Assembly: GCA_036274155.1 (NCBI GenBank)
Contig: DASUGH010000158.1
Location: forward strand, 16,017-80,016
Reading direction: 5' to 3'
DNA length: 64,000 bases
Source of the DNA: Vicinamibacterales bacterium
Lineage (GTDB): Bacteria > Acidobacteriota > Vicinamibacteria > Vicinamibacterales > UBA2999
The notes beneath the pieces were generated by a model, which did not search any database, was not told the DNA's origin, and worked only from the letters and a program-made list of their open reading frames with translations. The position numbers were made by a program, and so were the translations under genes. This document shows positions 28,759-59,624 of this stretch, one piece after another (positions within the stretch are counted from its first letter, which is position 1; the number at the start of each line of letters is the position of its first letter).

Positions 28759-29088
28759 ATGAAGAGTGAGCCGCCTGACCTGCTGCCCGGGACGCTTGAT
28801 CTCCTGATTCTCAAGACGCTCGCGCGCGGCGCGATGCACGGCTACGGCATCGCGCAGCATCTCAAGGCGGCCTCCCGCGACGTCCTGCAGGTGGGCGAGA
28901 GCTCGCTCTACCCGGCCCTGCAGCGTCTGCTGTTGAACGGATGGGTCACCGCGGAATGGGGGGCCTCCGAGAACAACCGCCGAGCCCGCTTTTACACGCT
29001 CACAGCGTTGGGCAGAAAGCGCCTCACCGCGGAGCGCCAGGAATTCGATCGCCTGGTGCTCGCGATTCAACAGGTGCTCGCGATCTAG
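28759..29088 (+). CDS. PadR-family transcriptional regulator (acidobacterial TIGR03433-like)
   Basis: LLPGTLDLLILKTLARGAMHGYGIAQHL...SLYPALQRLLLNGWVTAEWGASENNRRARFYTLTALGRKRL. 2 nt separate it from the next gene. Confidence 0.92.
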   Translation: MKSEPPDLLPGTLDLLILKTLARGAMHGYGIAQHLKAASRDVLQVGESSLYPALQRLLLNGWVTAEWGASENNRRARFYTLTALGRKRLTAERQEFDRLVLAIQQVLAI

Positions 29089-29090
29089 AC

Positions 29091-31676
29091 ATGGGCACCG
29101 TATTCCGCCGCCTCTGGTACTGGGTCCGTCAGCGCGAGATCGAATACGGGCTCGAGGAGGAGCTCGAGTTCCACCGCGCTCTCAAGCAGCAGGAGCTCGA
29201 GGCCGAAGGCCTCTCGCCCGAAGACGCGCGACTCACCGCGCGCCGCGAGCTCGGCAACGTGACGCGCGCGCGCGAGGATTCGCGCGCCGTCTGGATGTGG
29301 CCCTGGCTCGAAACCGTGTGGCACGATGCGCGCTACGCGCTGCGCGCCGTGCGTCGCCAGCCCGGCTTCGTCCTGCTCTCGGTGGTCGTCCTGGGCGTCG
29401 CCATCGGGCTGAACGCGAGTCTCTTCACGGTATTTGCCGCCGCGGCGCTGCGGCCGATGACCGGCGTCGCCGAGCCGGCGACGCTGGTGGTGGTCTCCGG
29501 GCGTGTCCCGCAGATTCCGGACCTCCTTTCCGGCCTCTCCATTCCCGAGTTCGATGTCCTCGCCGCAGAGGCCACGACGGCTGAACTCGCGGCGGAACGG
29601 CGAATGCCGGTACGGTTCGATTCTGGCGGTGGCGCGCGGGACATGACGGCTGCTTTCGTCACCGGCAACTACTTCGAGCTGCTCGGTGTCCACATGGAGC
29701 ACGGTCGCGGTGTTCTCGCGGACGAAGACACGCGCGGCGCATCAGTGCCTGTGGCTGTCCTGAGCTATTCGCTCTGGTACACGCAATTCGGAGCGGACCC
29801 GGCCATCGTCGGAAGAACGGTTCGCGTGGCCGGGCAGCCTCATACGGTCATCGGCGTCACCTCGCGCGCGTTCGCCGGCAGTGAGCGCTCGCGAGTATGG
29901 CTCCCGCTCGCGTCGTTGCCGGTGCTGCGCCCAGGCAATACGGGGCTGGACCGCCCTCAGGACTGCTGCGCCGAGGTCTACGCGCGTCTGCGGCCGGGCG
30001 CAACGCGCGCGCAGGTGGCGACGGAGCTCCAGACGTTGAGCGATCGCTTCCGTCGGACGGTGGGACAGGACGTCCGGCCGATCGTGCTGACCGGCACGCA
30101 GGCGCTCAGGGGACGCCGCGGCGACAACCAGAGCCTGGCCATCATCGGCGTGCTCTTCCTCGGCATCATGATGGTGCTGCTGCTCGCGTGTGCGAATGTC
30201 GGAAACCTGCTGCTGGCGCGCGCCGCCACCCGACGCGGAGAGATCGGCGTTCGTCTTTCGCTGGGAGCAGCACGATCGCGCGTCGTCCGGCAGCTGTTGA
30301 CCGAGGGGTTGATCCTGGTGCTGATCGCGGCCGCTGCGGGGCTGGCGATCGCGGCGTGGCTGCCGCGCTTCGTTATGAATACAGTCGCACGGCAGCCTGC
30401 GCCGTTCGATATCGGTCCCGACGGACTCGTCTTCGCGTACACGGCGGCGATCGCGGGTATCGCGTGCCTGGCGGCGGCGCTGGCGCCGGCGCTTCACGCG
30501 ACGCGTGGCGGTATCACCGCGACGCTGAAAGGCGACGCGCTCAGCCGGTCGCGCGTGCCGCTGCGCAGCCTGCTGCTCGGCGTACAGCTGGCCCTGACGG
30601 TCGTGTTGCTGACCAGCGCCGGTCTGCTGCTTCGCGGCGTTGCCGCGGCGCGTGAGCTGGATCTCGGATTCCGCGTCGAGGGCGTCTCAGAGGTGGCCGT
30701 CGAGCTGCCGGAGCCGGACTACGACGCGGAAAGAATGCGGACTTTCCTGGCCGACTTGTCGACGGCCCTGCAGTCGGCTGGATTGACGTCCGTGGCGTTC
30801 GCGGCGCCTGGACGCGCCACTGACGAGGCCAGGTTGCCTGGCCGGGGCGCAAACCAGACCAGCCCTGTCGAGCGGCTGGACGTATCGTCCTCGTACTTCG
30901 CTCTGTTGGATGTGCCGATGACGGCGGGTCGGAGCTTCACTGACCGCGACCGGAATCCCGGTGCCGCGGTCGTCAACGAAACGTTCGCGCGCCGATTCTG
31001 GCCCGGTGAAAACGCGGTCGGCCGCTCGTTCGTCGCAGAGAATCGCACCCTCGAAGTCATCGGGGTCGTTCGCGATGCGAGGGTGCTGGGCCTGGACCCG
31101 GTGCCACCGAGCTATTTCGTTCCCCTTACTGGACCGCGAGGCACGCTATTTCCGGTGCTCCTTCTGCGATCGAACCAGCCCTCGGAAGCTGCCGCGGTCA
31201 CCGCGGTGGTCGAACGACTCGAGCCTCGCGGACGCGTCACGGTGACCCCGATGCGCAATCGGTTCGATTTCGAGCTCGCGGAGCTCGCGCTCGCTCCGCT
31301 GGCCGCATCGGTGCTGGGGCTCTTCGCACTTGGTCTGGCGACCGTTGGCATGTTTGGCGCGTTTGCCTACGCGGTGCGTCAGCGCACTCGCGAGATCGGT
31401 ATCCGACTCGCCCTGGGCGCACGGTCTGCCGATGTCGTCCGCAGCATCCTTTCAGGCAATGCTCGCGTCGTCGCGCTGGGACTCGGCGTCGGCCTTCTGG
31501 GCGCCGCCGCCGTATCGCAGATCCTGCGAAGCCTGCTCTTCGGCCTCAGCCCGCTCGATCCGCTGACGTACGCAGGCGTCGCTCTGCTGCTTGCGGCGGT
31601 CGCGTTCGTGGCCAGCTACGCTCCGACCCGGATCGCACTGCGCGTCGATGCCGCAACGACACTGCGCGCCGAGTAA
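29091..31676 (+). CDS. ADOP-family duplicated ABC-type permease
   Basis: ATG at 29091. The prefix RRLWYWVRQREIEYGLEEELEFHRALKQQELEAEGLSPEDARLTARRELGNVTRAREDSR is typical of PadR-linked permeases. Then duplicated MacB-like/FtsX halves. Confidence 0.9.
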   Translation: MGTVFRRLWYWVRQREIEYGLEEELEFHRALKQQELEAEGLSPEDARLTARRELGNVTRAREDSRAVWMWPWLETVWHDARYALRAVRRQPGFVLLSVVVLGVAIGLNASLFTVFAAAALRPMTGVAEPATLVVVSGRVPQIPDLLSGLSIPEFDVLAAEATTAELAAERRMPVRFDSGGGARDMTAAFVTGNYFELLGVHMEHGRGVLADEDTRGASVPVAVLSYSLWYTQFGADPAIVGRTVRVAGQPHTVIGVTSRAFAGSERSRVWLPLASLPVLRPGNTGLDRPQDCCAEVYARLRPGATRAQVATELQTLSDRFRRTVGQDVRPIVLTGTQALRGRRGDNQSLAIIGVLFLGIMMVLLLACANVGNLLLARAATRRGEIGVRLSLGAARSRVVRQLLTEGLILVLIAAAAGLAIAAWLPRFVMNTVARQPAPFDIGPDGLVFAYTAAIAGIACLAAALAPALHATRGGITATLKGDALSRSRVPLRSLLLGVQLALTVVLLTSAGLLLRGVAAARELDLGFRVEGVSEVAVELPEPDYDAERMRTFLADLSTALQSAGLTSVAFAAPGRATDEARLPGRGANQTSPVERLDVSSSYFALLDVPMTAGRSFTDRDRNPGAAVVNETFARRFWPGENAVGRSFVAENRTLEVIGVVRDARVLGLDPVPPSYFVPLTGPRGTLFPVLLLRSNQPSEAAAVTAVVERLEPRGRVTVTPMRNRFDFELAELALAPLAASVLGLFALGLATVGMFGAFAYAVRQRTREIGIRLALGARSADVVRSILSGNARVVALGLGVGLLGAAAVSQILRSLLFGLSPLDPLTYAGVALLLAAVAFVASYAPTRIALRVDAATTLRAE

Positions 31677-31789: not shown

Positions 31790-32712
31790 ATGCGGTCAGC
31801 CGTCGCGGGCGTTGTCGTTGCCGTCGTTGTTCTCGTCGCGGCCGGATGGCTGTTCCAGAACGCCATCACAGGCCGCTCCAGTGCGCGCCAGGCCGATCAG
31901 CCCGCGCGCACAGCGGATGGCAGGCCGGATCTGAACGGCATCTGGCAGGCGCTCAACACCGCCAACTTCGACATCCAGGCCCATGCCGCCAGGCCGGCTC
32001 AGGCGGTGATTCCGGCAGCGCCGCGCAGCGGAGTGGCAGGACTCGTTCGAGCCACACACGTGGAACTCCCGCACCCGTTGGTGCGGCCGCTCGGCGCCGT
32101 CGGCGGCGTTCCGGCCGGCGAGAGTGTCGTCGAGGGCGACGAGATCCCGTACCAGCCGTGGGCCGCCGCGAAGAAGAAGGAGAACGCCGAGCACTGGCTG
32201 GAGCGCGACCCCGAGATCAAGTGCTACATGCCGGGAGTACCGCGCGCGACCTACATGCCCTACCCGTTCCAGATCCTGCAGGGCACGAACACGATCGTGA
32301 TGGCATACGAGTTTGCCGGCGCCTCGCGCACGATTCACCTCGGCACGGTCTCCGACAGCCCGGCGCCGACGTGGATGGGATGGTCGCGCGGCCGCTGGGA
32401 AGGCGACTCGCTCGTCGTCGAGGTGACCGATTTCAACGAGGAGACCTGGTTCGACCGCGCCGGCAACTTCCACAGCGACCAGCTGCACGTCACCGAACGC
32501 TACACTCCGACGAGTGCAATCATCTGCTCTACGAGGCCACGATCACCGACCCGAACGTGTTCACGCGCCCGTGGTCGATCCGCATGCCGCTGTACCGGCG
32601 GCTCGAATCGGGCAAGAAGCTTCTCGAGTACAAGTGCGTGGAGTTCGTCGAGGAGTTGATGTACGGCCAGCGTGGCGTCGTCGATCCGGCGACCGGGCAG
32701 AAGAACAAGTAG
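31790..32712 (+). pseudogene. Uncharacterised secreted/anchored protein (paralogue family 'P'), interrupted by a frame change near 32505-32512
   Basis: GAGGAGG RBS and ATG at 31790. Frame A reads to ...LHVTERYTPT. The conserved C-terminus NHLLYEATITDPNVFTRPWSIRMPLYRRLE...EYKCVEF continues in the -1 frame to the stop at 32712. The paralogue at 32728 has the same order in one frame. Confidence 0.65.
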
Positions 32713-32727
32713 ACGGAGGGCTGCCAC

Positions 32728-33771
32728 ATGAACGCCCGCTATCCGGTCCTGATGCTCGCGCTCGCGGCGGCCGTTGGCGCCGCCATCGCGACGAGCGGAG
32801 CACTTCCAATCGCCATGACTGCGGAGCCGGACTCCACCGCTTCGTCGTGGAAGCAGACGACGCCCTGGGGTGATCCCGATCTGCAGGGTGTGTGGCGGTA
32901 CGAGGCCGCCATCCCGCTCGAGCGACCGGCGCGCTTCCAGGGACGCGAGTCGCTCACCGACGAGGAGCTCGAAGAGAGTCAGCGAATCGAGGACGAACAG
33001 GCCAGGCAACGTCTGGCGGGAGCGGAAGGCGCCGCCGTCGGCCGGCGATCGGTCGCCGAGTCGCCGATCCGCGGGAACGAGTACAACAGCTTCTGGCAGG
33101 ACCACGGACGGCCGCGGCAGGTCCTCCGACAGACATCTCTCATCGTCGATCCGAAGGACGGCCGGCTTCCATACACGTCAGACGCCAGGAAAGCGGAGGC
33201 GCGAGCCAGCGCCCGCTACGGCGTCGGGCCGTACGAGTCCTACCTCGATCCCGATACTGGCGAGCGCTGTCTCACGGACGGCGTCACGGCACTGATGTGG
33301 CAGGGGCCTAACGGAGGACACAACCGGATCGTGCAGAGCCCTGGCTACGTCACCATCCTCCATGAGGAGTATCTCGACCGGCGCATCATCCCGACCGACG
33401 GACGACGCCACGGCAGCATCCGGCAGTGGTTCGGCGATGCCGTCGGCAGGTGGGAAGGCTCGACCCTCGTCGTCGACACCACCATCAATTTCATCGATCG
33501 AACGAATTACGAGTGGGCGGCGATTTTCACGCGGCCGTCGGAGACGCTGCACATCGTCGAGCGCTTCACTCGCACGGGCGCTGACGCGATGGAGTACCGC
33601 ATCACCGTGGAAGATCCAGCGACGTTCGACAAGCCGTGGACGGCGGTGATTCCGATCACGCGGCTGAACGAAGGCACACAGATCTACGAGTACGCGTGCC
33701 ACGAGGGCAACTACGCGATGACGAACCTGCTGGCAGGCGGGCGTGCCGACGCGGCGAAGCGATCACGGTGA
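32728..33771 (+). CDS. Uncharacterised secreted protein (paralogue family 'P')
   Basis: Signal peptide. Conserved blocks are GERC...NRIVQSPGYVTILHEEYLDRRIIPTDGRRH...GDAVGRWEGSTLVVDTT...LHIVERFTRT...EYRITVEDPATFDKPWTAVIPI...YEYACHEGN. Confidence 0.8.
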   Translation: MNARYPVLMLALAAAVGAAIATSGALPIAMTAEPDSTASSWKQTTPWGDPDLQGVWRYEAAIPLERPARFQGRESLTDEELEESQRIEDEQARQRLAGAEGAAVGRRSVAESPIRGNEYNSFWQDHGRPRQVLRQTSLIVDPKDGRLPYTSDARKAEARASARYGVGPYESYLDPDTGERCLTDGVTALMWQGPNGGHNRIVQSPGYVTILHEEYLDRRIIPTDGRRHGSIRQWFGDAVGRWEGSTLVVDTTINFIDRTNYEWAAIFTRPSETLHIVERFTRTGADAMEYRITVEDPATFDKPWTAVIPITRLNEGTQIYEYACHEGNYAMTNLLAGGRADAAKRSR

Positions 33772-33775
33772 ACTC

Positions 33776-34204
33776 ATGCACAGACATTTCATGATCCTGT
33801 TCGTCGTAAGCGTCGTCTCGTTGCCCGCGGCGCTCCGCGCACACCATGCCTTCGCTGCGGAGTTCGACGCCAGCAGGCCGTTCAAGATTCGCGGCACCGT
33901 CGTCAAGATGGAGTGGATCAACCCGCACACGTGGCTGCACCTGGATGTGAAGCGGCCCGACGGCAAGACCGAGCGCTGGATGATCGAGGGCGGCCCGCCG
34001 AACGCGCTCTACCGTCGCGGGTTCACGAAGAACTCGCTCCCGCAAGGCGCCGAACTCGTCGTCGAGGGGTTTCGTGCCAAAGACGGGTCGCTCAAGGGCA
34101 ACGGCCGCGAGCTGACATTCGCGGACGGCAGGCGGCTGTTCGTCGGATCGTCGGGCACCGGCGCGCCCAACGACGGCAAGGAACCGCAGGGCGGCAAGGA
34201 ATAG
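33776..34204 (+). CDS. Small secreted protein, DUF6152-like, predicted mature N-terminus His-His
   Basis: MHRHFMILFVVSVVSLPAALRA|HHAFAAEFD..., followed by the WINPHTWL motif. It is a paralogue of 56572-56967. Confidence 0.75.
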   Translation: MHRHFMILFVVSVVSLPAALRAHHAFAAEFDASRPFKIRGTVVKMEWINPHTWLHLDVKRPDGKTERWMIEGGPPNALYRRGFTKNSLPQGAELVVEGFRAKDGSLKGNGRELTFADGRRLFVGSSGTGAPNDGKEPQGGKE

Positions 34205-36447: not shown

Positions 36448-38286
36448 TCAGGACGGCGAGGCCTCTGCCATCTCCTCGATTTCCCTGTCGAACACCGCCC
36501 AGACCCGCTCGCTCAGCTGCGAGAAGAACTCGCGCGTCACGAACGGCGGAACGCCCAGGTTGGGGTTCGGGCGGTCGAACACCTCCGACGGCAGCGTGTA
36601 GTCCGATCGATCGTACCCCTGCTTGCGCTCGAGCCACAACGCGCGGACGAAGGCGCGCCGCACGGCAGCCAGCAGCTCCGCTGACGTCGCCTCGAACCCG
36701 CTCTCATGCTTCAGCGCCTCGACGACGTGGTCGGCGCTGACGCCGGCGAACTTGCACAGGCCGAGCAGGTCGTCGCGCACGAAGTACAAGCCGCGTTCAG
36801 TAATCAGCTTCGCCCAATAGTCGAGCGAGGTGTTGCCCTCGAGCGCCAGCGCCATGTAGGTGGCCATCGACATGTGTCCGCCGGCGATCGCCCACGGATA
36901 GCCCGGGTTCGTATCGGGCTGGTAGGCGGGGAACTCCATGCCCTTGCTGTGCATCGCATACCCGGTCTCCCCGAGCTTCTCCGACAGCCGCTTCACGCCG
37001 CGGCCCACCTCGGGAAACCGCCCCGTGGCAGCGCCCTCGATGAGCTCGCGCGCCTTGTCGAAGTCGCCAAAGGTCGCGCCGTTCAGAATCGGCGCGTCCG
37101 GATGCCGCTGGTTGTAGTCCATCACGTACGAGATCGTCGTGCCCAGCGAGATGTTGTCCATCCCGAGGTGGTCGACCAGGCTGATGAGCGCGGCAGCCTT
37201 GCGCGGATCGTGAATCGCGATGTTGGTCGACAGGAGGTTCACCGGCTCATAGTCGAACTTGGCCAGAAAAGCGCCGCGCGTCCCGTCGGCGTTCTTCTCG
37301 TACACGTTCTTGTGGCAGTTGATGCCGCAGCGGAAGCACGACTCGGCCTTGACGACGAACTGCGGCTGGACGTGGTCGCGGAACATCAGCTCGGGCTTGC
37401 CGTCGCCCGTGGGCCGGAAGTTGTTCTGCGGGACGAAGTGGAACTTTTCGAGCGGCTCGTAGTTCGACCAGGTCCCGCCGAGCCCTCCCTTGTCCTTCTC
37501 GCGGAATTTGCGCGATCCGGGGCCGGTCGACGCCGCCTTGTTGATGTCGCGGATCTCCGGCTTCAGCTTGGCGATGCGGTCTGGCGTCTGCGCGACGATC
37601 GCCAGCACGCGCTTGTACCCCATGACGGCGCCCATGCCACCACGGCCGGCCCACCGGCACTTGTCGTCGCCCGACCTGAGCTGGTTTTCGGTGCTGAGCG
37701 CCACCGCCGCCATGTAGCAATCCTCGTAGTGCTCGCCGGCGGGACCGATCACCGCGAAGTGCGCGTCGGCGTATCGATCGCGCAGCCACATGATCTTGTC
37801 GTGGCAGGCGAGCCCGAGCAGATCGCCTGCGGGCTCGAACCCAATCTGCGGACCTTGCTCGCTGTGACGGATCACCAGGTACACCGGCACGTCGGCCCGG
37901 CCTTCCAGAATCATCTCGTCGAGCCCGGTCCATTTGAGCTTCGGGCCGAACTTGCAGCTGCCGGCCGACCACATCGCGGCGGGCAGGCCCTTGTTGGAAA
38001 TCTTGAGTGGGCTGTAGGCCGAGAAATACGTGCGCAGACCGGTCATGACGTTCGACGCCGTCAGCACACCGGTGTTGACGATGAGCGGATTGTCGGGCGT
38101 GAACGCGTGCGTGATGGTCCGCTCCGCCAGGATCTGGAACGATCGTCCGAATCCCCCCAGCACATCCTCGAGGTTCCGGCAGGGCACGTCTTCGACGCGG
38201 ACGTCCCGGGATGCCAGGTCGACGGTCGCACGCGTGTAGACGACCGCGCGAGGGTCGCTATGGGATCCGTTGAACGAGGTGCGCAT
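36448..38286 (-). CDS. aor: Aldehyde:ferredoxin oxidoreductase family (tungstopterin enzyme)
   Basis: N-terminal AFOR_N pattern ...VDLASRDVRVEDVPCRNLEDVLGGFGRSFQIL. FeS cysteines ESCFRCGINCHKNV. C-terminal AFOR_C region. 612 aa. Confidence 0.92.
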   Translation of the reverse strand: MRTSFNGSHSDPRAVVYTRATVDLASRDVRVEDVPCRNLEDVLGGFGRSFQILAERTITHAFTPDNPLIVNTGVLTASNVMTGLRTYFSAYSPLKISNKGLPAAMWSAGSCKFGPKLKWTGLDEMILEGRADVPVYLVIRHSEQGPQIGFEPAGDLLGLACHDKIMWLRDRYADAHFAVIGPAGEHYEDCYMAAVALSTENQLRSGDDKCRWAGRGGMGAVMGYKRVLAIVAQTPDRIAKLKPEIRDINKAASTGPGSRKFREKDKGGLGGTWSNYEPLEKFHFVPQNNFRPTGDGKPELMFRDHVQPQFVVKAESCFRCGINCHKNVYEKNADGTRGAFLAKFDYEPVNLLSTNIAIHDPRKAAALISLVDHLGMDNISLGTTISYVMDYNQRHPDAPILNGATFGDFDKARELIEGAATGRFPEVGRGVKRLSEKLGETGYAMHSKGMEFPAYQPDTNPGYPWAIAGGHMSMATYMALALEGNTSLDYWAKLITERGLYFVRDDLLGLCKFAGVSADHVVEALKHESGFEATSAELLAAVRRAFVRALWLERKQGYDRSDYTLPSEVFDRPNPNLGVPPFVTREFFSQLSERVWAVFDREIEEMAEASPS

Positions 38287-50355: not shown

Positions 50356-51279
50356 ATGGACAGTCTGGTTTATCTCGTCTACAGTCCGGCCAACTCCGTC
50401 GATCAACTGACGTTTTCCGTCATGTCCGCCCGCCGGCTGCTGCCGTCGGCGGACGCTCTCCGGGTGCTCGTCTTCACCGACGATCCCACAGCGCTCGATG
50501 ACCTCGAGGTGCAGACAGTCACGATTGCGCCGGCCGTGCTGGAGGAATGGGCCGGTGCCCATCGCTATATTCACCGCCGCAAATTGCTGGCGATCAAGCA
50601 GGCGCTCCAGCAATTCGGGGGACGGGTGCTGTATTGCGATACTGATACCTACTTCCGACTGAGTCCTCTCGAGGTTTTCAAACGGATCGGCCGCGGACAC
50701 ACGCTGACGCATCTCTGCGAAGGATATTTGCACCGCGCCAAGGCCGGCGATCTCGCGGCGTTCGTCGATACCCATGAACTGAAAGCGCTCGACGGCAGCC
50801 GATGGGGCATCACGGCGGCGACGCGAATGTTCAACGGCGGCGTGGTCGGGCTGGACGCCGCTGACGCGGCGCTGCTCGACGAGGCCGTTCATCTCGTCGA
50901 CCAGCTGTATCCGCGGTTACGGCTCCACACCATCGACCAGTTCGCCGTCGGGGCGTGCCTGTCGCGCCGTACCTCGATGCAGGCCTGCGATGACGCCATC
51001 TATCATTACTGGCCGCAGCGGCCACAGTTCGCCGACCAGCTGGCCATCGTGCTGCACGATCCGTCTCTCCGCACTGACGAAGAGCGATGGCGTCGGCTCG
51101 AGCCGCACCTGCCGACGCAGGACCAGCGTGTGCACAACTGCTGGCCGTCACGATGGCCCGAGCGCCTGCGAATCGAGCTGCGCGACGTCGCCAAGCGAAC
51201 AGGCCTGCTGGGCCCATTGAGGAACACCGTGGCGGTCGGCCGCCGATTGCGCGGCAGCAGCCGTTCTATTTCTTCTTGA
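50356..51279 (+). CDS. Putative nucleotide-sugar-dependent transferase-like protein (DXD), uncharacterised
   Basis: ATG at 50356. LVYLVYS...LRVLVFTDDP...VLYCDTDTYF. The last gene of the plus-strand glycan block. Confidence 0.55.
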   Translation: MDSLVYLVYSPANSVDQLTFSVMSARRLLPSADALRVLVFTDDPTALDDLEVQTVTIAPAVLEEWAGAHRYIHRRKLLAIKQALQQFGGRVLYCDTDTYFRLSPLEVFKRIGRGHTLTHLCEGYLHRAKAGDLAAFVDTHELKALDGSRWGITAATRMFNGGVVGLDAADAALLDEAVHLVDQLYPRLRLHTIDQFAVGACLSRRTSMQACDDAIYHYWPQRPQFADQLAIVLHDPSLRTDEERWRRLEPHLPTQDQRVHNCWPSRWPERLRIELRDVAKRTGLLGPLRNTVAVGRRLRGSSRSISS

Positions 51280-52165
51280 ACAGGTTCCGCAACGCGTCGG
51301 AGGCGTTGATTTGTTCGTGAGTCATGCCCTGGGTGCCCCGGCGAAACCTGGCGGCGTCTTTGGGGATGGTGGGCCCAAGCTCGTTGCGGACCACGGCCTT
51401 GATCTTTTCCGCGAACTTCCTGGTGACCTCGACATTGGCGAGGATGAACCCCTCCTCCGTCACTTCCACCGGCCGGTCGCCGTACTCGGACGTGATCGTC
51501 GCGGTGTAGACGAGGAACGGCGCCGAGGCGACTTTGTTGGTGGCCCTGTTGATGCCGACCTTGTCCTCCATCTTCGCGAACGTTTCGACGTAAACGTCTA
51601 CCGGGAGGAACTCGGCTCCGCGGTCGAAGCTGGAAAAGCTCTTGGACTGCCCCGTCCGGAAGTCGTGGTCCCTGGAGTATCGGTCCACCTGCCCCTGATC
51701 CAGCGCCTTGATCACGGGGTCGTTGTCGAACTCCTTGCGGAGGTAGGGGAAGACGCCGTCCCTGGTGGTCGCCTTACGCAGGTTCTCGCTCACGACCGTC
51801 TGAAAGAGCGCCACCAGGATCGGATCGTTGGCGTCGCGCCTGGGAGCACTGGCGAGCGCGGACCGCCGTTCCTCTCTCTCCTTCTTCGCCGCGTCGGCTT
51901 TCGCCTGCGCCTCGGGGTCGTCGGTGGAAAGGATGTTGCCGTCCTTGTCCTTGACCGTCGTGGTCGTGGTGACGGTGCCATCTTTCTCCTTGATGGTGAC
52001 CGTCGTGGTCGTGGTCCCTTCGTTGTCGGTCTTGACCTTCGTCGTGATCTTCTTGCCGTCCTTGACGGTAGTCGTCGTAGTGGTGCTCGTTGCGCCCACC
52101 GCGGCAAAGCTCGCGAAGGTCAGGAGGAGGGAGGTGATGACGGCAACCGCTCGGATCTTCTTCAT
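51266..52165 (-). CDS. Secreted protein with Thr-rich tandem repeats and an unknown ~200-aa C-terminal domain
   Basis: ATG at 52165. Signal peptide MKKIRAVAVITSLLLTFASFAAVGA. Repeats TTTTTTVKDGKKITTKVKTDNEGTTTTTVTIKEKDGTVTTTTTVKDKDGN. The 3' end overlaps the convergent gene by 14 nt. Confidence 0.7.
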   Translation of the reverse strand: MKKIRAVAVITSLLLTFASFAAVGATSTTTTTTVKDGKKITTKVKTDNEGTTTTTVTIKEKDGTVTTTTTVKDKDGNILSTDDPEAQAKADAAKKEREERRSALASAPRRDANDPILVALFQTVVSENLRKATTRDGVFPYLRKEFDNDPVIKALDQGQVDRYSRDHDFRTGQSKSFSSFDRGAEFLPVDVYVETFAKMEDKVGINRATNKVASAPFLVYTATITSEYGDRPVEVTEEGFILANVEVTRKFAEKIKAVVRNELGPTIPKDAARFRRGTQGMTHEQINASDALRNLFKKK

Positions 52166-52321
52166 ACTTCTCGCCCGTGCATGGCTTCCGGTGATTGGAC
52201 CAGGGGCTCCGGGCGCCCCACCTTGATCCAATCGGCAATGTCGTCGAGAGCATGAAAGACGTCGAGTGGAACAGTCGATTGCGTTCGTGGCTACCGCGCA
52301 GGACCAGCGTTCCTCATGAGA

Positions 52322-52837
52322 TCAGATGACAGTGTTGAACCAGGCGGCTGCCAGCGCGATGGCAATGACGATCACCGCCTGGCCGCCGATGAGCACCGCC
52401 TGCACGCGGTTCGAGCGTCCCTTCAACGACGTATACCGTTGGCTGAGGACCGTCGGCACGAGCCAGGAGACAGCGAGGAGCGAATCGAAATAGGGGCCGC
52501 CGCCGTACCGTACTCTCCCCCACATCAAGGCCAGCACCAGCGCGAGCGTTCCGCCAAGCATGACCAGCGCAGCCTTGCGGGTGTCCTCCGCCGTGACGTT
52601 CGGGCCATGACCGGCGCATCTGAGTTGCAGCATCCTGGGCAACATCGTTCCTGCTCCTTTCGCATCGGCGGCCGTGGCGGCCGTCGACGACTGCGGGTTG
52701 AACCAGGCATCGACGGCGCCGGCAACGAGATCGATTGCCGTCCCGAACGATGCCGGCTGGGTTGCAATGAGCTCCGCCAGCTCGCGGCCGTAGCGGCGGC
52801 GCCATGCCGGCGGATACAGCCGGATCAGCCAGGTCAC
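52322..52837 (-). CDS. Membrane protein coupled to PadR (permease-prefix-like N-terminus)
   Basis: MTWLIRLYPPAWRRRYGRELAELI is the prefix typically seen downstream of PadR genes. Three or four hydrophobic segments. ATGA overlap with the PadR stop. Confidence 0.65.
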   Translation of the reverse strand: MTWLIRLYPPAWRRRYGRELAELIATQPASFGTAIDLVAGAVDAWFNPQSSTAATAADAKGAGTMLPRMLQLRCAGHGPNVTAEDTRKAALVMLGGTLALVLALMWGRVRYGGGPYFDSLLAVSWLVPTVLSQRYTSLKGRSNRVQAVLIGGQAVIVIAIALAAAWFNTVI

Positions 52838-53166
52838 GCGCTGGCCAGCCGCCTCTGGCCGACTTTCGCGACCACCTGCATGCTGGCGAGCCGGGCGCGC
52901 AGCGCCTTCTCGCCAACCGCCGTCAGCTGGTACGGATTGCGCCGGTCTTCGGCCTCGAGTCCCTCGATGAGGCCGCGCGATTCGAGCCGGGCGATGGCGC
53001 CGTAAAGCGACCCCGGCCCGAAGCGCACCCCCGCGAAGGAGGCGATGTCTTCGGTGATGGCGTAGCCATGCTTGGCGCCGTCGGCCAGGCTCACCAGGAT
53101 CAGCAAAGCCGGCTCGGCGAACCGGCCGAACTCGTCGAGATCGGCAACATCATCACGGCGTGCCAT
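52834..53166 (-). CDS. PadR-family transcriptional regulator
   Basis: LLILVSLADGAKHGYAITEDI...GSLYGAIARLESRGLIEGLEAEDRRNPYQLTAVGEKAL. Confidence 0.9.
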   Translation of the reverse strand: MARRDDVADLDEFGRFAEPALLILVSLADGAKHGYAITEDIASFAGVRFGPGSLYGAIARLESRGLIEGLEAEDRRNPYQLTAVGEKALRARLASMQVVAKVGQRRLASA

Positions 53167-53678: not shown

Positions 53679-54527
53679 GTGATCATCACACGCGCGCTCC
53701 GACGAGCCGTCCTCACGTCAGTCATCTGCGCGCTCGCGGCGTGCCACCCGCGCATCTCGCCCTCGAGTACGTGGGTGCACCGGCTGCCGAACGGCCCGGT
53801 GCTCACGGTCATTGGCGATCCCTCGTCCTCCGCCGGCGCGACGTGGACGCTCACCGGCATGATGGACGGGACGACCGTGGATCTCGAGGGCATTCTCGCG
53901 AAGCCACGCGGCAGGGGCCCTTTTCCGGCAGTCGTGCTCAGCCACGGCGCCGGCGGCAATGCCGCGTCGTACGGCCACCGCCTTGGTGCCGTGATGCGCA
54001 CATGGGGGCTGGTCTGTATCGCGACCAACTATACGCACGCTCGCGGGGTGCGCATCGGGGTGCCCGGCTCTTTTCTCGAACAGGGCGCGAGCTCGGCGAA
54101 CGTGTTCCGCGCTCACGCCGCCGTGACCGTGCTGGCGCGCCTCGGCTACGTCGACGTCCGGCGCATCGCCGCCCACGGTCACAGCATGGGCGCCTTCGTG
54201 ACCACCGCGTTTGTCGCCGCGTACCCCGGTGACGTTCGCGTCGCGTCGCACACTGCAGGAGGTGTCCTGCTGCTGAGCCCCGTCCACCTGGACGGGATCC
54301 CCGCTCCGAGCGAGGCGCAGGCCCGACGCATCCAGACACCCTATCAGTGGCACCATGGCCTCCTGGATTTCGCCGTTCCGTTCATCCTCGACCGGCGGTT
54401 CGACAGCGTCGTCGGCGGGCCGCACGAAGGCTACATCTACAACCGTTTGCGTCACACAGAGGTCGCCGAGGATTCCACCGTGCTGAAGCGCATCAGGACC
54501 TGGTATCGCGCGCACGGCCTTTTCTGA
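53679..54527 (+). CDS. Alpha/beta hydrolase (dienelactone-hydrolase/prolyl-oligopeptidase-like) lipoprotein
   Basis: Lipobox-like LTSVICALAAC. GPFPAVVLSHGAGG. Nucleophile elbow GHSMG. Confidence 0.8.
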   Translation: MIITRALRRAVLTSVICALAACHPRISPSSTWVHRLPNGPVLTVIGDPSSSAGATWTLTGMMDGTTVDLEGILAKPRGRGPFPAVVLSHGAGGNAASYGHRLGAVMRTWGLVCIATNYTHARGVRIGVPGSFLEQGASSANVFRAHAAVTVLARLGYVDVRRIAAHGHSMGAFVTTAFVAAYPGDVRVASHTAGGVLLLSPVHLDGIPAPSEAQARRIQTPYQWHHGLLDFAVPFILDRRFDSVVGGPHEGYIYNRLRHTEVAEDSTVLKRIRTWYRAHGLF

Positions 54528-54598
54528 CGCCCTTTCGCTTGAACCGCCCCGGGAACCGGGCCATAATGTCGGACCCATGCAAGTTATTGAGGGGGCAT

Positions 54599-56572
54599 AT
54601 GTTTAACGGCGCCCAGACGCGATTCGCGATACGCCCGCTGCTCCTCCTTGCGTGCGCCGCGGTGGCCAGTGTGCCTCTCTTCTCTCAGGGAGGCCCGGCG
54701 CGGGCCGGGAACGCGCCCGACATCTCCGGCGAATGGCGACTGGAGAACAGCGAGGACGACACCACCGCTCAGCCGCCGCTCGGTGATTACACCGGCATCC
54801 CCTTCAACGACGCAGGGCGTCTCAGATCCGACACGACGCCGGAATCGATCTGGGGAACGCCGGAGTATCAGTGCCGTCCGCATTCGGCGCCCCACCAGTG
54901 GCGGGGACTTGGCGGCGCGCGGATTCTCAAGGAGCAGGATCCGCTGACCCGCGACATCCGCGCGTATCACATCCAGTTCATGCGCTCGCTCGACCGTCCG
55001 GTCTTCATGGACGGACGTCCGCATCCGCCGGCATGGGCGCCACACAGCTGGACCGGTTTCTCGACCGGAGAATGGATCGGGAACACGCTCAAGATCACCA
55101 CGACCCACCTCAAGGACGGATATCTCAAGCGAGGCGGGCCGCAGACGAGCGACATGTACTCGATGACCGAGTTCCTCACGCGCCACGGCGACATCCTGAG
55201 CATCGTGACGGTCATCGACGATCCGATCTACATGGACGAGCCGTACGTCCATTCCACGACGTACGCCTACGATCCCACGGCAAGCGTCGCCCACGAGGTA
55301 TGCAACTCGTCGGCGTTCGCCGAGAATGGCGGCACCGACCGGCATTGGGTGCCGCATTTTCTTCCCGGAGAGAACAACGCCCGCAGCGAGTGGCTGAAGG
55401 ACGAGAACTGGTTCCCGCCGGAAGCGGCGCTCGGCGGCGTGCGGACGCTGTATCCGGAGTACCGAACGACACTGAACGGGACGGTTCGTCCGGACACGTT
55501 GAAGGTTCCCGCCTCGCGCTCGGCGCTGACCATCGACAAGCGGATCGCCGAACAGAGCCCGCGTGATGGCCAGGTGCACGTCCTTCCGGTTCAGGGCAAC
55601 ATCTACATGCTGGTCACCGACGGCACCAACGTCACGGTCTCCCTCGGTCCCGAGGGCGTGATGGTCGTGAACACCGGCCCGGCGCAGATGTCCGACAAAC
55701 TGCTGACCGCGATCAATCAGCTCGCGAACGCATCGGTGTTGCCGCCGACGACCAACAACTGCGCCGGCGTGTCGTGTCCGGGTGCGTGGGGCTGGTCGAG
55801 CCCCTATATGAATGCGGTGATCAGCTCCCCCGCGCCGCCGAAGCCAGTCCGCTACATCGTCAACACCAGCGCTTCGCCTGACAACGTGGGCGGAAACCTG
55901 AAGATCGCCACGTCAGGCTTCTTCCCGCGCGTGCAGGGGTTCGGCGCCGCCGTCGAAAGCGTCGGTCGCGGCGCCTCGATTGTGGCGCACGAGAACGTGC
56001 TCAACCGCATGACCGCCGCGCCGGCGGCGAAGCAGCCGGCAGTTCCCGCCGCCGCGCAGCCGACCGACACCTACTTCGACGAGTTCTTCAAGCTGCCGGC
56101 GTATGTCAACGGCGAAGCCGTAATCGTGTATTCCGCGGCGGCCGCCAACACCGACGGCGACAGTTTCGTGTTCTTCCGGCACTCCGAGGTGATTGCCGCC
56201 GGCGATCTCTACTCGACCGTCAGCTACCCGGTGATCGACGTCGCCAAGGGCGGCACGATCCAGGGTGTGATCGACGGCCTGAACAAGATCATCGATCTGG
56301 CGGTTCCCGAGTACCGGGCCCAGGGGGGCACGTGGGTCATCCCCGGGCGCGGCCGTCTCTCCGATACGGCCGACGTCGCCTCGTACCGCAACATGGTGAC
56401 GATGATGCGCGACCGCATCCGCGACCTGAAGTCGAAGGGCATGACGCTGCAGCAGGTAAAAGCGGCGCGGCCGACGCTCGATTTCGACGGCCGCTATGGC
56501 TCGACCACCGGTCCCTGGACCACCGACATGTTCGTCGAGGCTGTTTACCGCACCCTCCAGGAGAAGAAGTAA
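54599..56572 (+). CDS. Fusion of a family-'P' domain with a degenerate (ligand-less) MBL-fold domain, secreted
   Basis: ATG at 54599 and a signal peptide. The N-half has EYQC...DRPVFMDGRPH...GFSTGEWIGNTLKITTT...VIDDPIYMDEPY. The C-half has MBL topology, but HxHxDH reads SASPDN (IVNTSASPDNVGGN) and the GHG position reads GRG. Confidence 0.8.
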   Translation: MFNGAQTRFAIRPLLLLACAAVASVPLFSQGGPARAGNAPDISGEWRLENSEDDTTAQPPLGDYTGIPFNDAGRLRSDTTPESIWGTPEYQCRPHSAPHQWRGLGGARILKEQDPLTRDIRAYHIQFMRSLDRPVFMDGRPHPPAWAPHSWTGFSTGEWIGNTLKITTTHLKDGYLKRGGPQTSDMYSMTEFLTRHGDILSIVTVIDDPIYMDEPYVHSTTYAYDPTASVAHEVCNSSAFAENGGTDRHWVPHFLPGENNARSEWLKDENWFPPEAALGGVRTLYPEYRTTLNGTVRPDTLKVPASRSALTIDKRIAEQSPRDGQVHVLPVQGNIYMLVTDGTNVTVSLGPEGVMVVNTGPAQMSDKLLTAINQLANASVLPPTTNNCAGVSCPGAWGWSSPYMNAVISSPAPPKPVRYIVNTSASPDNVGGNLKIATSGFFPRVQGFGAAVESVGRGASIVAHENVLNRMTAAPAAKQPAVPAAAQPTDTYFDEFFKLPAYVNGEAVIVYSAAAANTDGDSFVFFRHSEVIAAGDLYSTVSYPVIDVAKGGTIQGVIDGLNKIIDLAVPEYRAQGGTWVIPGRGRLSDTADVASYRNMVTMMRDRIRDLKSKGMTLQQVKAARPTLDFDGRYGSTTGPWTTDMFVEAVYRTLQEKK

Positions 56573-56967
56573 TGCGTAGAGTGGCTTATCTCGTCGTCGG
56601 CGCGGCGGTGTTGGCAGGCACAGCGACGTACGCCCACCATTCGTACGCCGCAACATACGACGTGTCGACGGAAATCAAGCTGGACGGAAAGCTCGTGGCG
56701 TTCTCCTACCGCAATCCTCATTCGTTCGTGACCGTTCAGGCACCGGACAAGGACGGCGCGATGCAGCGCTGGTCCATCGAGTGGGCGGGCAGCGGCCAGC
56801 TCGCACAGGCCGGCGTCCAGCACGACACGCTCAAGGTCGGCGATGAGATCGTCGTCGTCGGTCGCCCGTCGCGCGTGCGCGGCGAATATCGCGCCCTGAT
56901 GGTCAGGCTGACCCGGCCGTCGGACGGCTTCAACTGGGGCGGACGTGCCGGACAGGTCGTTGACTAG
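56572..56967 (+). CDS. Small secreted protein, DUF6152-like, predicted mature N-terminus His-His
   Basis: The ATG overlaps the previous stop (TAATG). MRRVAYLVVGAAVLAGTATYA|HHSYAATYD..., followed by the YRNPHSFV motif. Confidence 0.75.
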   Translation: MRRVAYLVVGAAVLAGTATYAHHSYAATYDVSTEIKLDGKLVAFSYRNPHSFVTVQAPDKDGAMQRWSIEWAGSGQLAQAGVQHDTLKVGDEIVVVGRPSRVRGEYRALMVRLTRPSDGFNWGGRAGQVVD

Positions 56968-57724
56968 GACACCCGCTGCCCTCGTCGCAACCCTGGCGAT
57001 CGCCCTCGCTCTGCCGGCAGCCGTTCACGCTCAGCGCGGCGGACGCGGCGCGGGTGGAGGAGCGCCCGCCTCGGCGCGCACCGCTGCCGCGCTGGATCTC
57101 ACGGGCTACTGGGTGTCGGTGATCACCGAGGACTGGAAGTACCGGATGGTCACGCCCAAGAAGGGCGTGTTCGACGCCATTCCCCTCTCCGCGGAAGGCC
57201 GCAAGGTCGGTCAGGCGTGGGATCCCGCCCGCGACGAGGCCGCCGGTGAACAGTGCAAGGCGTACGGCGCGGCCGGCATCATGCGGATGCCGACGCGTCT
57301 GAACATCACCTGGGAGAACGACAACACCCTGCGCATCGACACCGACGCCGGAACTCAGTCGCGCCGGCTGTACTTCGGCAACGCGCCGGCGCCGGGAGAG
57401 CGGAGCTGGCAGGGCCACTCGGTTGCCGTGTGGGAGGCCGGCGCCGGCGGTGGTCGTGGCGCTCCACGGCAGGGGAATCTCAAGGTGGTGACCACCAACC
57501 TTCGGCCCGGCTACGTGCGCCGCAACGGCGCTCCGTACAGCGACAAGACCACCGTCACCGAGTACTTCGACGTCAACACGCTGCCAAATGGCGATCGCTG
57601 GATGACCGTGTTGGCGGAGGTCGAGGACCCGGTCTATCTGAGCCGCCGCTACATCACGACGTCGGACTTCAAGAAACTGCCAGACGCCACCGGGTGGGCG
57701 CCCACGCCCTGCTCGACGAAGTAA
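56945..57724 (+). CDS. Uncharacterised secreted protein (paralogue family 'P')
   Basis: Signal peptide ...AALVATLAIALALPAAVHAQ. GEQC...TRLNITWENDNTLRIDTDAGTQSRRLYF...WQGHSVAVWE...LKVVTT...VTEYF...EVEDPVYLSRRY. Start GTG 56945 or TTG 56960. Confidence 0.72.
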   Translation: MPDRSLTRTPAALVATLAIALALPAAVHAQRGGRGAGGGAPASARTAAALDLTGYWVSVITEDWKYRMVTPKKGVFDAIPLSAEGRKVGQAWDPARDEAAGEQCKAYGAAGIMRMPTRLNITWENDNTLRIDTDAGTQSRRLYFGNAPAPGERSWQGHSVAVWEAGAGGGRGAPRQGNLKVVTTNLRPGYVRRNGAPYSDKTTVTEYFDVNTLPNGDRWMTVLAEVEDPVYLSRRYITTSDFKKLPDATGWAPTPCSTK

Positions 57725-57730
57725 CAGCCC

Positions 57731-58945
57731 CTATCTGCTTCGATCGACGGCGACGCCGCGCAGGTAGACCGATGCGATCCTCCGTGTGTTCGTAATGTCG
57801 TCGAGCGGGTTGGCGTCGAGCACGATGAAGTCGGCGCTCTTGCCAGCCGCGATCGTGCCGGCATCCGCCATGCGCAGGAACTCCGCACCATTGCGCGTGG
57901 CGGCGACGAGAACCTGCATCGGCGTCATCCCGGCCGCCACCATGTCGGCCATTTCGACGTGTGGTGCCCACGGGGTGTTACCGTCGGAGCCGAGCGCGAT
58001 GCGCACGCCCGCCGCGTTCATCCGCGCCAGGTTCCTCGCCTGTACGCCGAACTGAGCCTGTGCGTCGGGGCGATCGGTGTTGCCCGCTTCCAGCTTCTGC
58101 AGTTCGGCCTGCGACAGGCTGCCCTTCAGCCAGCTCACATCAGTCTTGACGCCGCGATCGGGCAGGTTCGGCACGAGCACGAACGCCGGACGTGTCTTGA
58201 CCATCGCCATGAACTCGTCGTCGACATCGCGGTCGCGCACACCGTGTGCGAACGCGTCGATCCCGGCCTTCCATAAACCTTTCGCATCCTCCAGCGTGAA
58301 CAGATGGGCGGTTACGCGGAGGGAGTTCTTGTGTGCCTCGTCGATCACGGCACCGTACAGGTCCGGGGTGAGCTTCTTGTACTTCCCGTCGCGATCGTCG
58401 ACCCAGATCTTGACGATGTCGACCTTCTGCGCGGCCAGTTCCTGTACGGCCTTCCGGCCTTCGGCCGCGGTGGTAATCCAGTGCGGGGCGGTCGAGCGCC
58501 CCGGCTCCGGCGCGGTGATGCCGCGGCCGGCGGTGAAGAACCGTGCGGCGCCCGGAATCGTCTGGGCGCGCATCTGGAACGGCAGCTCGCCCAGGTCCTG
58601 CCCGAGGCTCATGGCAGCGCTGAGACCGTAGTAGGCGCGCCGGCGCAGATCCTGCGTGAGCGCTTCGCGCTCCTGGCTCAGATGCGTGTGCGTGTCGACG
58701 ATCGCGGGCATGACGGTCTTGCCTAGGAGACTCACGCGGGTGGCTCCGGCGGGAGCTTTCACATCCGCGGCGCGGCCGACCTGAGCGACACGCGGGCCGT
58801 CAACGACGATCGTGGCGTTCTCGATCGCCGCCCGTCCGTCTCCGACGATGACGCGTGCGCCTTCGAACACCGTCATCGCCGTCTGCGCACGATTCGAGAT
58901 GGACCACGCCGACACCACGAGCAGCACGAACAACACTCGTTTCAT
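57731..58945 (-). CDS. Secreted amidohydrolase-family metallo-hydrolase
   Basis: ATG at 58945 and a signal peptide. PAIVDTHTHL (HxH), VTAHL, AFAHGV and LGSDGNTPW, ending ...NTRRIASVYLRGVAV. Confidence 0.88.
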   Translation of the reverse strand: MKRVLFVLLVVSAWSISNRAQTAMTVFEGARVIVGDGRAAIENATIVVDGPRVAQVGRAADVKAPAGATRVSLLGKTVMPAIVDTHTHLSQEREALTQDLRRRAYYGLSAAMSLGQDLGELPFQMRAQTIPGAARFFTAGRGITAPEPGRSTAPHWITTAAEGRKAVQELAAQKVDIVKIWVDDRDGKYKKLTPDLYGAVIDEAHKNSLRVTAHLFTLEDAKGLWKAGIDAFAHGVRDRDVDDEFMAMVKTRPAFVLVPNLPDRGVKTDVSWLKGSLSQAELQKLEAGNTDRPDAQAQFGVQARNLARMNAAGVRIALGSDGNTPWAPHVEMADMVAAGMTPMQVLVAATRNGAEFLRMADAGTIAAGKSADFIVLDANPLDDITNTRRIASVYLRGVAVDRSR

Positions 58946-59054
58946 TGAGGCCTCCCGAGGACGATGCCAACAGAGAGAGACGATCATACGCCCTGGCAGG
59001 GGTATCCTACGCCCGGCTGCCCAGGCGGCGGATGGGAGCTGGAAGGACACGACA

Positions 59055-59624
59055 ATGCTGATGAAGAGATCGCTGGCCGTGCTCGCGCTCGTTCTCACGT
59101 CCTGTCTCGCGGCCCTTGCCGGCGTCCAGGCCCGGCAGAACCGGGGCGCCGCTGCGCTGACCGGCGCTGACTATGTGGAAATACAGCAGCTGAGCGCCCG
59201 ATACGCGCAGGCGATCGACAGCTGCGCCGACAACGGATACGAGTACGCACGGCTGTACACGCCGGACGGCGTCTTCGTCGACATGTGGAGCGAAGACGCA
59301 CTCAAGCAGGGCGGCACGCGGTGGCAGGGACGCGAAAAGCTAGGTGAGATCGCGTCCGGCGCAAATTTCGGCGGGCCGGGGTGTACGAGCACGCGTTTCA
59401 ACGGCAGCGTCAGCCATCTCATCTTGAACCTGGTGATTACACCGTCGCCCGAAGGGGCCAGAGGCAATTCGTATCTCGTGGAGCTCGGAGGCCGGGATCC
59501 CAACCGTATTCAGCGTCTCGGGAACTACGAGGACGTCTATGTGAAGACCGCCGACGGATGGCGCTTCAAGTCGCGGACACACACGCGCGCGCCGAACGGA
59601 ACCCGGCCGTCGCCGCAACAGTGA
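59055..59624 (+). CDS. Secreted SnoaL_4/NTF2-like protein
   Basis: ATG at 59055. Signal peptide MLMKRSLAVLALVLTSCLAALAGVQA. EIQQLSARYAQAIDS...YEDVYVKTADGWRFKSR. Confidence 0.72.
   Translation: MLMKRSLAVLALVLTSCLAALAGVQARQNRGAAALTGADYVEIQQLSARYAQAIDSCADNGYEYARLYTPDGVFVDMWSEDALKQGGTRWQGREKLGEIASGANFGGPGCTSTRFNGSVSHLILNLVITPSPEGARGNSYLVELGGRDPNRIQRLGNYEDVYVKTADGWRFKSRTHTRAPNGTRPSPQQ

Follow-up and report, generated by a model that had tools for sequence, protein, structure and literature searches.

We analysed a 64,000-nucleotide stretch of a Vicinamibacterales genome (GenBank assembly GCA_036274155.1, contig DASUGH010000158.1; hereafter the window, with positions counted from its first letter), and within it a cluster of three forward-strand genes at 54599-57724, here designated A, B and C. 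Gene A (54599-56572) encodes an exported protein of 657 amino acids in which a domain of a family termed P (AN type) is fused to a metallo-beta-lactamase (MBL)-like domain. Gene B (56572-56967) encodes a 131-residue 'His-His' (HH) protein of the DUF6152 family, with a signal peptide that ends TYA directly before HH, and gene C (56945-57724) encodes an exported stand-alone P protein of 259 residues (C subtype). The three genes are co-directional and overlapping, and the gene calls were reproduced. At the A/B junction, TAATG, the stop codon TAA (56570-56572) and the start codon ATG (56572) have one base in common, with GGAG upstream; this 1-nt overlap was kept in the orthologous loci L001-L003 (L numbers denote stretches of other genomes, 85 of which were covered by the module scans). 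The B/C overlap was 23 nt with the GTG at 56945 as the C start and 8 nt with the in-frame TTG at 56960. The P(+MBL)/HH/P order and tight overlaps proposed in a preliminary description of this DNA are thus real, and the overlaps suggest that translation of A, B and C may be coupled. The proposed export of the products also held, as typical Sec signal peptides were found at the N-termini of all three proteins (3/3). A sigma-70-like promoter match (TTGAAC-17-CATAAT, 54539-54567, + strand) lies approximately 30 nt upstream of the A start; it was the one match in the region, not above shuffle expectation (mean 0.7), and only its position is suggestive. Each module protein of the window has thousands of homologues, the nearest 74-92% identical along the whole protein and mostly from soil metagenomes and Vicinamibacterales metagenome-assembled genomes (MAGs); for A more than 1,271 were found, and the best 120, all full length, were 74-92% identical. 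The best explanation of this arrangement is a single operon that carries one copy of an uncharacterised module.

GTDB species genomes were scanned with a DUF6152 alignment, which returned at least 582 loci, of which 80 were kept. These loci came from Acidobacteriota (Vicinamibacterales, Terriglobia, Bryobacteraceae and Granulicella rosea DSM 18704, locus L079), Gammaproteobacteria (Steroidobacteraceae), Rhodospirillaceae, Gemmataceae, Dehalococcoidia and Candidatus Cybelea. Type 2 modules consist of AN, an MBL-fold protein, DUF6152 and C, and this four-part form was present in Acidobacteriota, Gamma- and Alphaproteobacteria, Planctomycetota, Chloroflexota and Eremiobacterota. The commonest orders were AN-MBL-HH-C and HH-AN-MBL-C, and the four parts remain together in at least six phyla despite varied order (MBL-C-AN-HH also occurs). 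Type 1 modules, with the order P1-P2-HH or HH-P-P, were also found on plasmids, in Novosphingobium humi (NZ_CP117419, 35.9-38.5 kb) and in Croceibacterium atlanticum (NZ_CP011453, 38.9-40.6 kb). Scans of the 85 loci with hidden Markov models (HMMs) placed a P gene no more than 2.6 kb from 95 of 117 DUF6152 genes. AN and MBL are separate adjacent genes in most lineages and are fused in the window lineage and a few others. Further fusions comprised an AN-C tandem (protein P0363) and four DUF6152-P proteins (L085 6721-7875, L069 9225-10250, L071 9041-10210 and L065 1402-2520), in which DUF6152 was always N-terminal, directly after the signal peptide. Several AN-MBL copies were present in L025. 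Local paralogy was extreme in one Vicinamibacterales MAG (L063 1-14098), with six DUF6152 and seven P genes in 14 kb.

The window itself contains exactly one further module, P1-P2-DUF6152, identified at 31790-34204 by tblastn and HMM scans (copy 1). Its + strand genes encode a type-1 P protein (P1, 31790-32712), a second P protein of 347 amino acids (P2, 32728-33771) and a DUF6152 protein (HH1, 33776-34204; Pfam E = 1.1e-32, 112.4 bits) with the predicted mature N-terminus HHAFAAEFD. Judged against intact 306-residue orthologues (L004 7067-7987 and L005 7066-7986), P1 is frameshifted near 32515-32518, reflecting either a pseudogene or an assembly error. The second copy gives the window four P domains and two HH proteins, as the preliminary description had counted them. 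It had also claimed that the four P domains are paralogues and had named a profile-profile comparison as the result that could overturn this; when run, the comparison was significant. The N-terminal part of A matched C by tblastn (8e-8 and 1.7e-10), and hhalign gave a probability of 98.6% for AN versus C (E = 1e-15), 99.3% for P1 versus P2 (E = 8e-21) and 71-87% for the four cross-module pairs (E = 4e-6 to 4e-5), with less than 0.5% for the P profiles versus the unrelated C-terminal half of A used as a control. Bridging sequences that match the HMMs of both module types were found at L017 222-1181, at L051 10308-11087 and among Sphingomonadales proteins in L086 and L087. On the basis of these profile-profile scores and bridging sequences, the four P domains belong to one superfamily.

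The presence of two modules less than 64 kb apart, with P and DUF6152 families common to both, could be explained by a recent local duplication, in which copy 2 is a rearranged copy 1 and part of a lineage-specific expansion that includes the flanking hydrolases. A neighbour-joining tree of 59 P domains argued otherwise. The AN clade was recovered in 48/50 bootstraps and the C clade in 50/50, and the split of AN+C versus P1+P2 was also supported in 50/50. The P domains of the window lay at distances of 0.08-0.47 from orthologues elsewhere versus 0.78-0.93 from each other, and B and HH1 were just 31% identical. Both module types occur across several phyla, and the flanking hydrolases are never conserved beside the module. 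Recent local duplication was ruled out by the P-domain phylogeny, and the scenario as a whole is barely credible. The sequences indicate instead that the two modules are ancient distinct types, with P domains that are ancient paralogues grouping with orthologues from other phyla. The terms 'rearranged copy 2' and 'lineage-specific expansion', under which the locus was first described, are therefore abandoned: the order seen in the window is the normal order of the four-part module, and orthologues are closer than the window paralogues.

Neither A nor C matched a Pfam family, and a Pfam scan of 81 C-type P proteins also matched none; the C type alone comprises 2,707 clusters at 50% identity. 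The structure of C was modelled by AlphaFold2 (AF2) with a deep alignment (predicted local distance difference test, pLDDT, 89.8; predicted template-modelling score, pTM, 0.82) as a strand followed by a helical insert of about 55 residues (60-117) and then a beta-strand meander. The best Foldseek matches to this model in the PDB were avidins (E = 4.8e-3, probability 0.97-0.99, identity 7-10%), with template-modelling (TM) scores of 0.47-0.59 per target; no PDB match was obtained at E <= 1e-3. Based on the model and the avidin matches, C is predicted to be an eight-stranded barrel of the general avidin/calycin type with no close solved relative. Residues C104 and C256 are invariant in the C family, as are many Trp and Arg residues in C-type proteins. 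The P domain of A (AN subtype, beta-rich core; 54716-55498, + strand, approximately residues 40-300) gave a low-confidence AF2 model with about nine strands at residues 107-224, and no match to A was returned when its sequence was used to search the PDB. The ratio of nonsynonymous to synonymous substitution rates (dN/dS) of this domain was 0.07-0.15 in comparison with six orthologues.

The second half of A is an MBL-like domain (55616-56569, + strand, approximately residues 340-657). No Pfam family was matched by A, whole or with the C-terminal half alone, even at E <= 1, Lactamase_B (PF00753) included. The sole match of the C-terminal half was a weak one to TIGR04559 (SoxH_rel_PQQ_2; E = 4.6e-7, 29.5 bits versus a curated cutoff of 280). 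Its homology to MBL proteins is shown only transitively, through separate-gene homologues that an HMM of the C-terminal half matched at 1e-76 to 1e-125 and that themselves match Lactamase_B at 1e-5 to 5e-19. TIGR04559 was also the best named family for these separate-gene relatives (56-98 bits, up to 4e-28), which likewise fell far short of that cutoff. Column analysis of 54 homologues and the window protein revealed a degenerate MBL motif 2 at 55865-55897 (+ strand), with TSASPDNVGGN replacing THxHxDHxGGN. The ligand positions in the window protein read S424, S426, D428, N429, N517, D536 and R584; the MBL-like domain described earlier as dead is indeed so, with S424, S426, N429, N517 and R584 in place of the five ligand histidines. 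The full ligand set HxHxDH/H/D/H was intact in 21/54 relatives; MBL subunits with intact ligands lie, for example, at L029 6857-7945 and L048 6759-7937, in lineages where AN and MBL are unfused. Close orthologues of the window domain read SA[E/D]H...N...[N/D]...R. The dN/dS of the domain versus six orthologues was 0.11-0.24, which argues that it is a maintained pseudo-enzyme under purifying selection and not a decaying relic. AF2 modelling of full-length A with 61 close homologues gave a pLDDT of 44.8 overall and 25-50 over most of the MBL-like domain. As a separate observation, two former active-site positions of A carry residues that set it apart from over 90% of its close orthologues: S in place of H512 (56132-56134) and N in place of H429 (55883-55885). 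With its unique pattern, SSDNHSNDR, A is the most ligand-poor of 120 homologues.

Protein B matched the Pfam family DUF6152 (PF19649) with 81.3 bits against a cutoff of 27 (E = 5.5e-23). Analysis of 83 diverse DUF6152 members revealed seven invariant residues, namely H22, H23, G39, N48, P49, H50 and E70. In B, H22-H23 are encoded at 56635-56640, N48-P49-H50 at 56713-56721 and E70 at 56779-56781 (all + strand). An AxA-type signal-peptidase site stands directly before His-His in 103/103 DUF6152 sequences, all with Ala or Gly at position -1 and a small or aliphatic residue at -3, which is the signal peptidase I pattern. Because His-His directly follows this site, a histidine would be the free N-terminus of mature DUF6152 proteins, with H22-H23 as the predicted first two residues of mature B. 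A free N-terminal histidine is a hallmark of histidine-brace metal sites (PMC10952591), and CopC and YcnI provide precedents for an N-terminal His (PMC8424229, PMC12362106). The invariant H23 and H50 are candidates for the second histidine of such a brace (T-shaped Cu coordination). No known histidine-brace family was among the Pfam matches of the 83 members, even at E <= 5. Sub-threshold Pfam matches to families with the oligonucleotide/oligosaccharide-binding (OB) fold were obtained for DUF4131 in 42/83 members (best 5.6e-6) and for tRNA_anti-codon in 27/83 (best 8.5e-5), with sub-threshold matches to tRNA_anti_2, TOBE and CcmE in a few; from these matches the DUF6152 fold looks OB-like.

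We propose, tentatively and with a little less than even confidence, that the A/B/C module is a secreted metal-bearing hetero-oligomer with small-molecule barrels, which would bind a ligand or act on it. A, B and C would be subunits of one periplasmic complex, in which AN and C, as paralogous avidin/calycin-like barrels, most likely pair together and hold a small molecule. DUF6152 would provide an OB-fold-like subunit whose N-terminal His-His is freed by signal-peptide cleavage, and His-His, the NPH histidine and the glutamate would most likely hold a single metal ion in a histidine-brace or 3-His-1-Glu manner. The ancestral fourth part would be an MBL-fold metallo-hydrolase that docks on AN and is hydrolytic where its ligands are intact; in the window lineage, the MBL fused to AN may have become a conserved scaffold or binding domain rather than a dizinc hydrolase, since all five ligand histidines are lost.

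The same barrels could also serve without metal. Under this explanation, the P barrels ferry a small hydrophobic or anionic molecule through the periplasm, much as YceI or lipocalins do, and DUF6152 is a structural or docking OB-fold subunit whose histidines make protein-protein or ligand contacts. The avidin/calycin-like barrel, the many invariant Trp and Arg residues of C and the major facilitator superfamily (MFS) transporter and TonB-dependent receptor genes nearby are all consistent with a ligand shuttle. Such a shuttle leaves the histidine at the first mature position (103/103), the constant N-terminal placement of HH in fusions and the invariant H/H/H/E set unexplained, and we regard it as distinctly improbable.

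Neighbouring genes were counted over the 85 other loci; these counts are raw and not normalised to genome background. TonB-dependent receptor genes were present in 32/85 loci and were co-oriented and adjacent to or embedded in the module in L030, L033, L064, L067, L079 and L087. From these positions we infer a link to TonB-dependent import, in which such receptors probably bring in the substrate that the module handles. In 14 loci, C or HH was directly followed by one or two four-helix membrane proteins of the DUF6644 family, an arrangement shared with N. humi. These partner proteins matched DUF6644 at up to 1e-19 and DUF2214 weakly (3e-4); alignment to a CopD HMM was near full length and not significant (E = 0.38), and literature searches on DUF6644 and DUF2214 returned nothing useful. 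Examples lie at L029 9298-10398, L036 9158-10358, L048 9024-9662 and L086 5370-6345, and a conserved W..P.vE..H motif was noted in the first helix. As to the substrate, we lean towards organic compounds on account of the paralogue abundance and the TetR/MarR-type regulators, and towards metal handling on account of the N-terminal histidine and the DUF6644 partner.

A different explanation that involves the DUF6644 partner is a metal-acquisition relay, in which DUF6152, by analogy with CopC/YcnI or CusF, acts as a metallochaperone of the periplasm. It would accept a metal (Cu, Zn, Ni or Fe) set free from a chelate that enters by TonB-dependent import, with the P barrels binding the chelate (like the calycin-like ZinT and siderocalins), an active MBL hydrolysing it and DUF6644 receiving the metal as a CopD-like importer. 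The N-terminal His after the cleavage site, as in CopC and YcnI (PMC8424229, PMC12362106), would suit this role, as would DUF6644 directly beside HH or C with its weak DUF2214 similarity and its near-full-length, non-significant CopD alignment, the in-operon TonB-dependent receptors at several loci and a HupE/UreJ gene near L001. Many paralogous modules are unusual for metal homeostasis, though (the six HH genes of L063, the several AN-MBL copies of L025 and the two modules here). The adjacent regulators are of TetR, MarR, PadR and OmpR types and not Fur, Zur, CsoR or CueR; no riboswitch, metal-responsive or otherwise, was identified when the window and 13 loci were scanned with Rfam; the CopD similarity is not significant, and the window has no DUF6644 gene. 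On balance such a relay appears unlikely.

Other recurrent neighbours were MFS transporters (13 loci), pyrroloquinoline quinone (PQQ) dehydrogenases and lactonase-like proteins (9 loci each), VOC proteins (7 loci) and carboxylesterases (6 loci). These genes bear on the possibility that DUF6152 is itself catalytic, with a histidine-brace-like Cu or 3-His-1-Glu Fe centre, in a periplasmic oxidative enzyme whose P barrels present a substrate that is small and possibly hydrophobic, whose active MBL adds hydrolysis and whose paralogues serve different substrates. Paralogue-rich families adjoin TonB-dependent receptors, MFS transporters, carboxylesterases, VOC/dioxygenase-type proteins, thiolases, PQQ dehydrogenases and lactonase-like proteins; the N. 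humi module stands beside a TetR regulator and genes for beta-oxidation; five loci have, beside HH, a cytochrome-c protein that weakly matches Cu2_monoox_C, and L086 has a CxxCH protein beside DUF6644; and histidine-brace proteins can be oxygenases (PMC10952591). Weighing the other way, an OB-fold histidine brace is found in no known enzyme, the core module has no conserved redox partner, the window module lacks these neighbours, and every link is drawn from gene proximity, uncorrected for background. We consider an oxidative enzyme quite unlikely.

Two of these neighbourhoods were recorded in more detail. The c-type haem protein with the weak Cu2_monoox_C match (7.8e-4) is about 450 residues long and adjoins DUF6152 at L016 8367-9755, L019 8520-9857, L012 2801-3691, L062 2967-4271 and L077 3-1346. 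In one Vicinamibacterales MAG (L002/L003 5477-20070), the module lies between a PQQ dehydrogenase and a tetrahydromethanopterin-linked formaldehyde-oxidation block (Fae, Mpt_N, ATP-grasp_3, DUF1464, GXGXG and Amidohydro_3); this arrangement is a lead only, as a PQQ dehydrogenase is nearby in just 9 loci.

Several observations weigh against the metal-bearing complex with small-molecule barrels that we favour. The avidin match of C is weak, with a TM score of 0.26 per query. Approximately 19% of DUF6152 genes have no P neighbour, and some modules have one P gene only or no MBL. TonB-dependent receptors are very common in carrier genomes, and neither a TonB-dependent receptor nor a DUF6644 gene was found near either window module. 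A search of the PDB with the DUF6152 profile identified no relative, only a non-significant adhesin repeat, and comparison of DUF6152 with reference sequences gave hhalign probabilities of 7% for CusF and 4% for YgiW. Metal binding by DUF6152 is predicted from sequence alone, and no paper that mentions DUF6152 was returned by a literature search.

In the window, the A-B-C operon is flanked by an alpha/beta-hydrolase-like gene with weak matches only (53679-54527) and by an amidohydrolase gene on the opposite strand (57731-59098, - strand). Both hydrolases noted in the preliminary description are present; neither is part of the system, as neither recurs beside the module in the 85 other loci. 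The hydrolase, SnoaL, PadR, GAF and aldehyde:ferredoxin oxidoreductase (AOR) genes of the window were rejected as system parts because none recurs in these loci. A PadR regulator gene (52834-53166, - strand) overlaps a downstream membrane-protein gene (52322-52837) by 4 nt; this pair is encoded approximately 1.4 kb upstream of the module, on the other strand, and its association with the module is not conserved. A threonine-rich repeat protein (51266-52231, - strand) has TTTTT and VKDGKKITTKVKTD-like repeats, a signal peptide and a weak Big_13 match only. A gene of the AOR family, which are tungsten/molybdenum pterin enzymes, is located at 36448-38286 (- strand; AFOR_N 1e-37, AFOR_C 3e-40). 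A MacB_PCD/FtsX permease of the acidobacterial ADOP type is encoded just upstream of copy 1 (28941-31676, + strand); ADOP-type permeases were near modules in 5 other loci, probably by chance given their commonness.

The association of P, MBL and DUF6152 as a fixed exported module in at least six phyla is previously undescribed, and the P family has no Pfam model despite approximately 2,700 C-subtype clusters at 50% identity. If the N-terminal His-His is a metal site, the small set of histidine-brace-type proteins would gain a new fold with DUF6152, and the module would represent a periplasmic system that is abundant and rich in paralogues in dominant soil bacteria (Vicinamibacterales, Terriglobia, Bryobacteraceae, Steroidobacteraceae and Sphingomonadales). 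A more ambitious proposal, to which we give a low probability, is that DUF6152 founds a new class of OB-fold N-terminal-His metalloproteins and, together with avidin-like barrels and the ancestral MBL, forms a new periplasmic metallo-enzyme or metal-relay complex acting on TonB-imported substrates and occurring in thousands of variants among soil Acidobacteriota, Proteobacteria and other phyla. The window lineage offers a natural experiment, as its MBL subunit has no ligands and is still under selection, and the question is testable in the cultured carriers Granulicella rosea DSM 18704, Novosphingobium humi KACC 19094 and Croceibacterium atlanticum 26DY36.

We rated the A/B/C-type module as outside every known kind of system because no characterised system has these parts and there is no DUF6152 literature; its proposed function is read from the sequences. 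Individual parts have counterparts elsewhere. As in the CopC/YcnI-CopD/YcnJ systems, DUF6152 is a small exported beta-rich protein in which the first mature residue is predicted to be a histidine needing a free amine, another conserved histidine could serve as a ligand, and a small multi-pass membrane protein is often adjacent. Unlike CopC and YcnI, the 83 DUF6152 members had no CopC, YcnI or DUF1775 match in Pfam scans, their fold appears OB-like rather than a cupredoxin/immunoglobulin-like sandwich, and their motif combines His-His, NPH and Glu. The partners also differ, as barrel and MBL proteins are absent from Cop/Ycn systems.

CusF, a periplasmic OB-fold Cu(I)/Ag(I) metallochaperone, and the BOF/YgiW proteins resemble DUF6152 in being small and periplasmic and probably in their OB fold. 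CusF has a His-rich N-terminus; DUF6152, unlike CusF, lacks a Met/Trp Cu(I) site. For the MBL component, the best-scoring named family was that of the SoxH-related 'quinoprotein relay system' zinc metallohydrolases (TIGR04558/TIGR04559; for example PP_2678 of the Pseudomonas putida ped cluster), a reference family (TIGR04559) that is itself uncharacterised. The module MBLs are similarly non-cytoplasmic, and PQQ dehydrogenases lie near the module in 9 loci; at 29-98 bits versus the cutoff of 280, however, they are not members of TIGR04559, and the window domain is without zinc ligands.

The P domain of C resembles avidin and streptavidin, which are calycins, in its modelled eight-stranded up-and-down barrel. 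Unlike avidin, it is twice as large, carries the helical insert of about 55 residues and has a conserved Cys104/Cys256 pair, and it gave no indication of biotin binding. Two further periplasmic calycin-like proteins serve as leads only: ZinT/YodA, which functions in metal handling and has a His-rich N-terminus, and YceI, which binds isoprenoids and pairs with the membrane protein YceJ.

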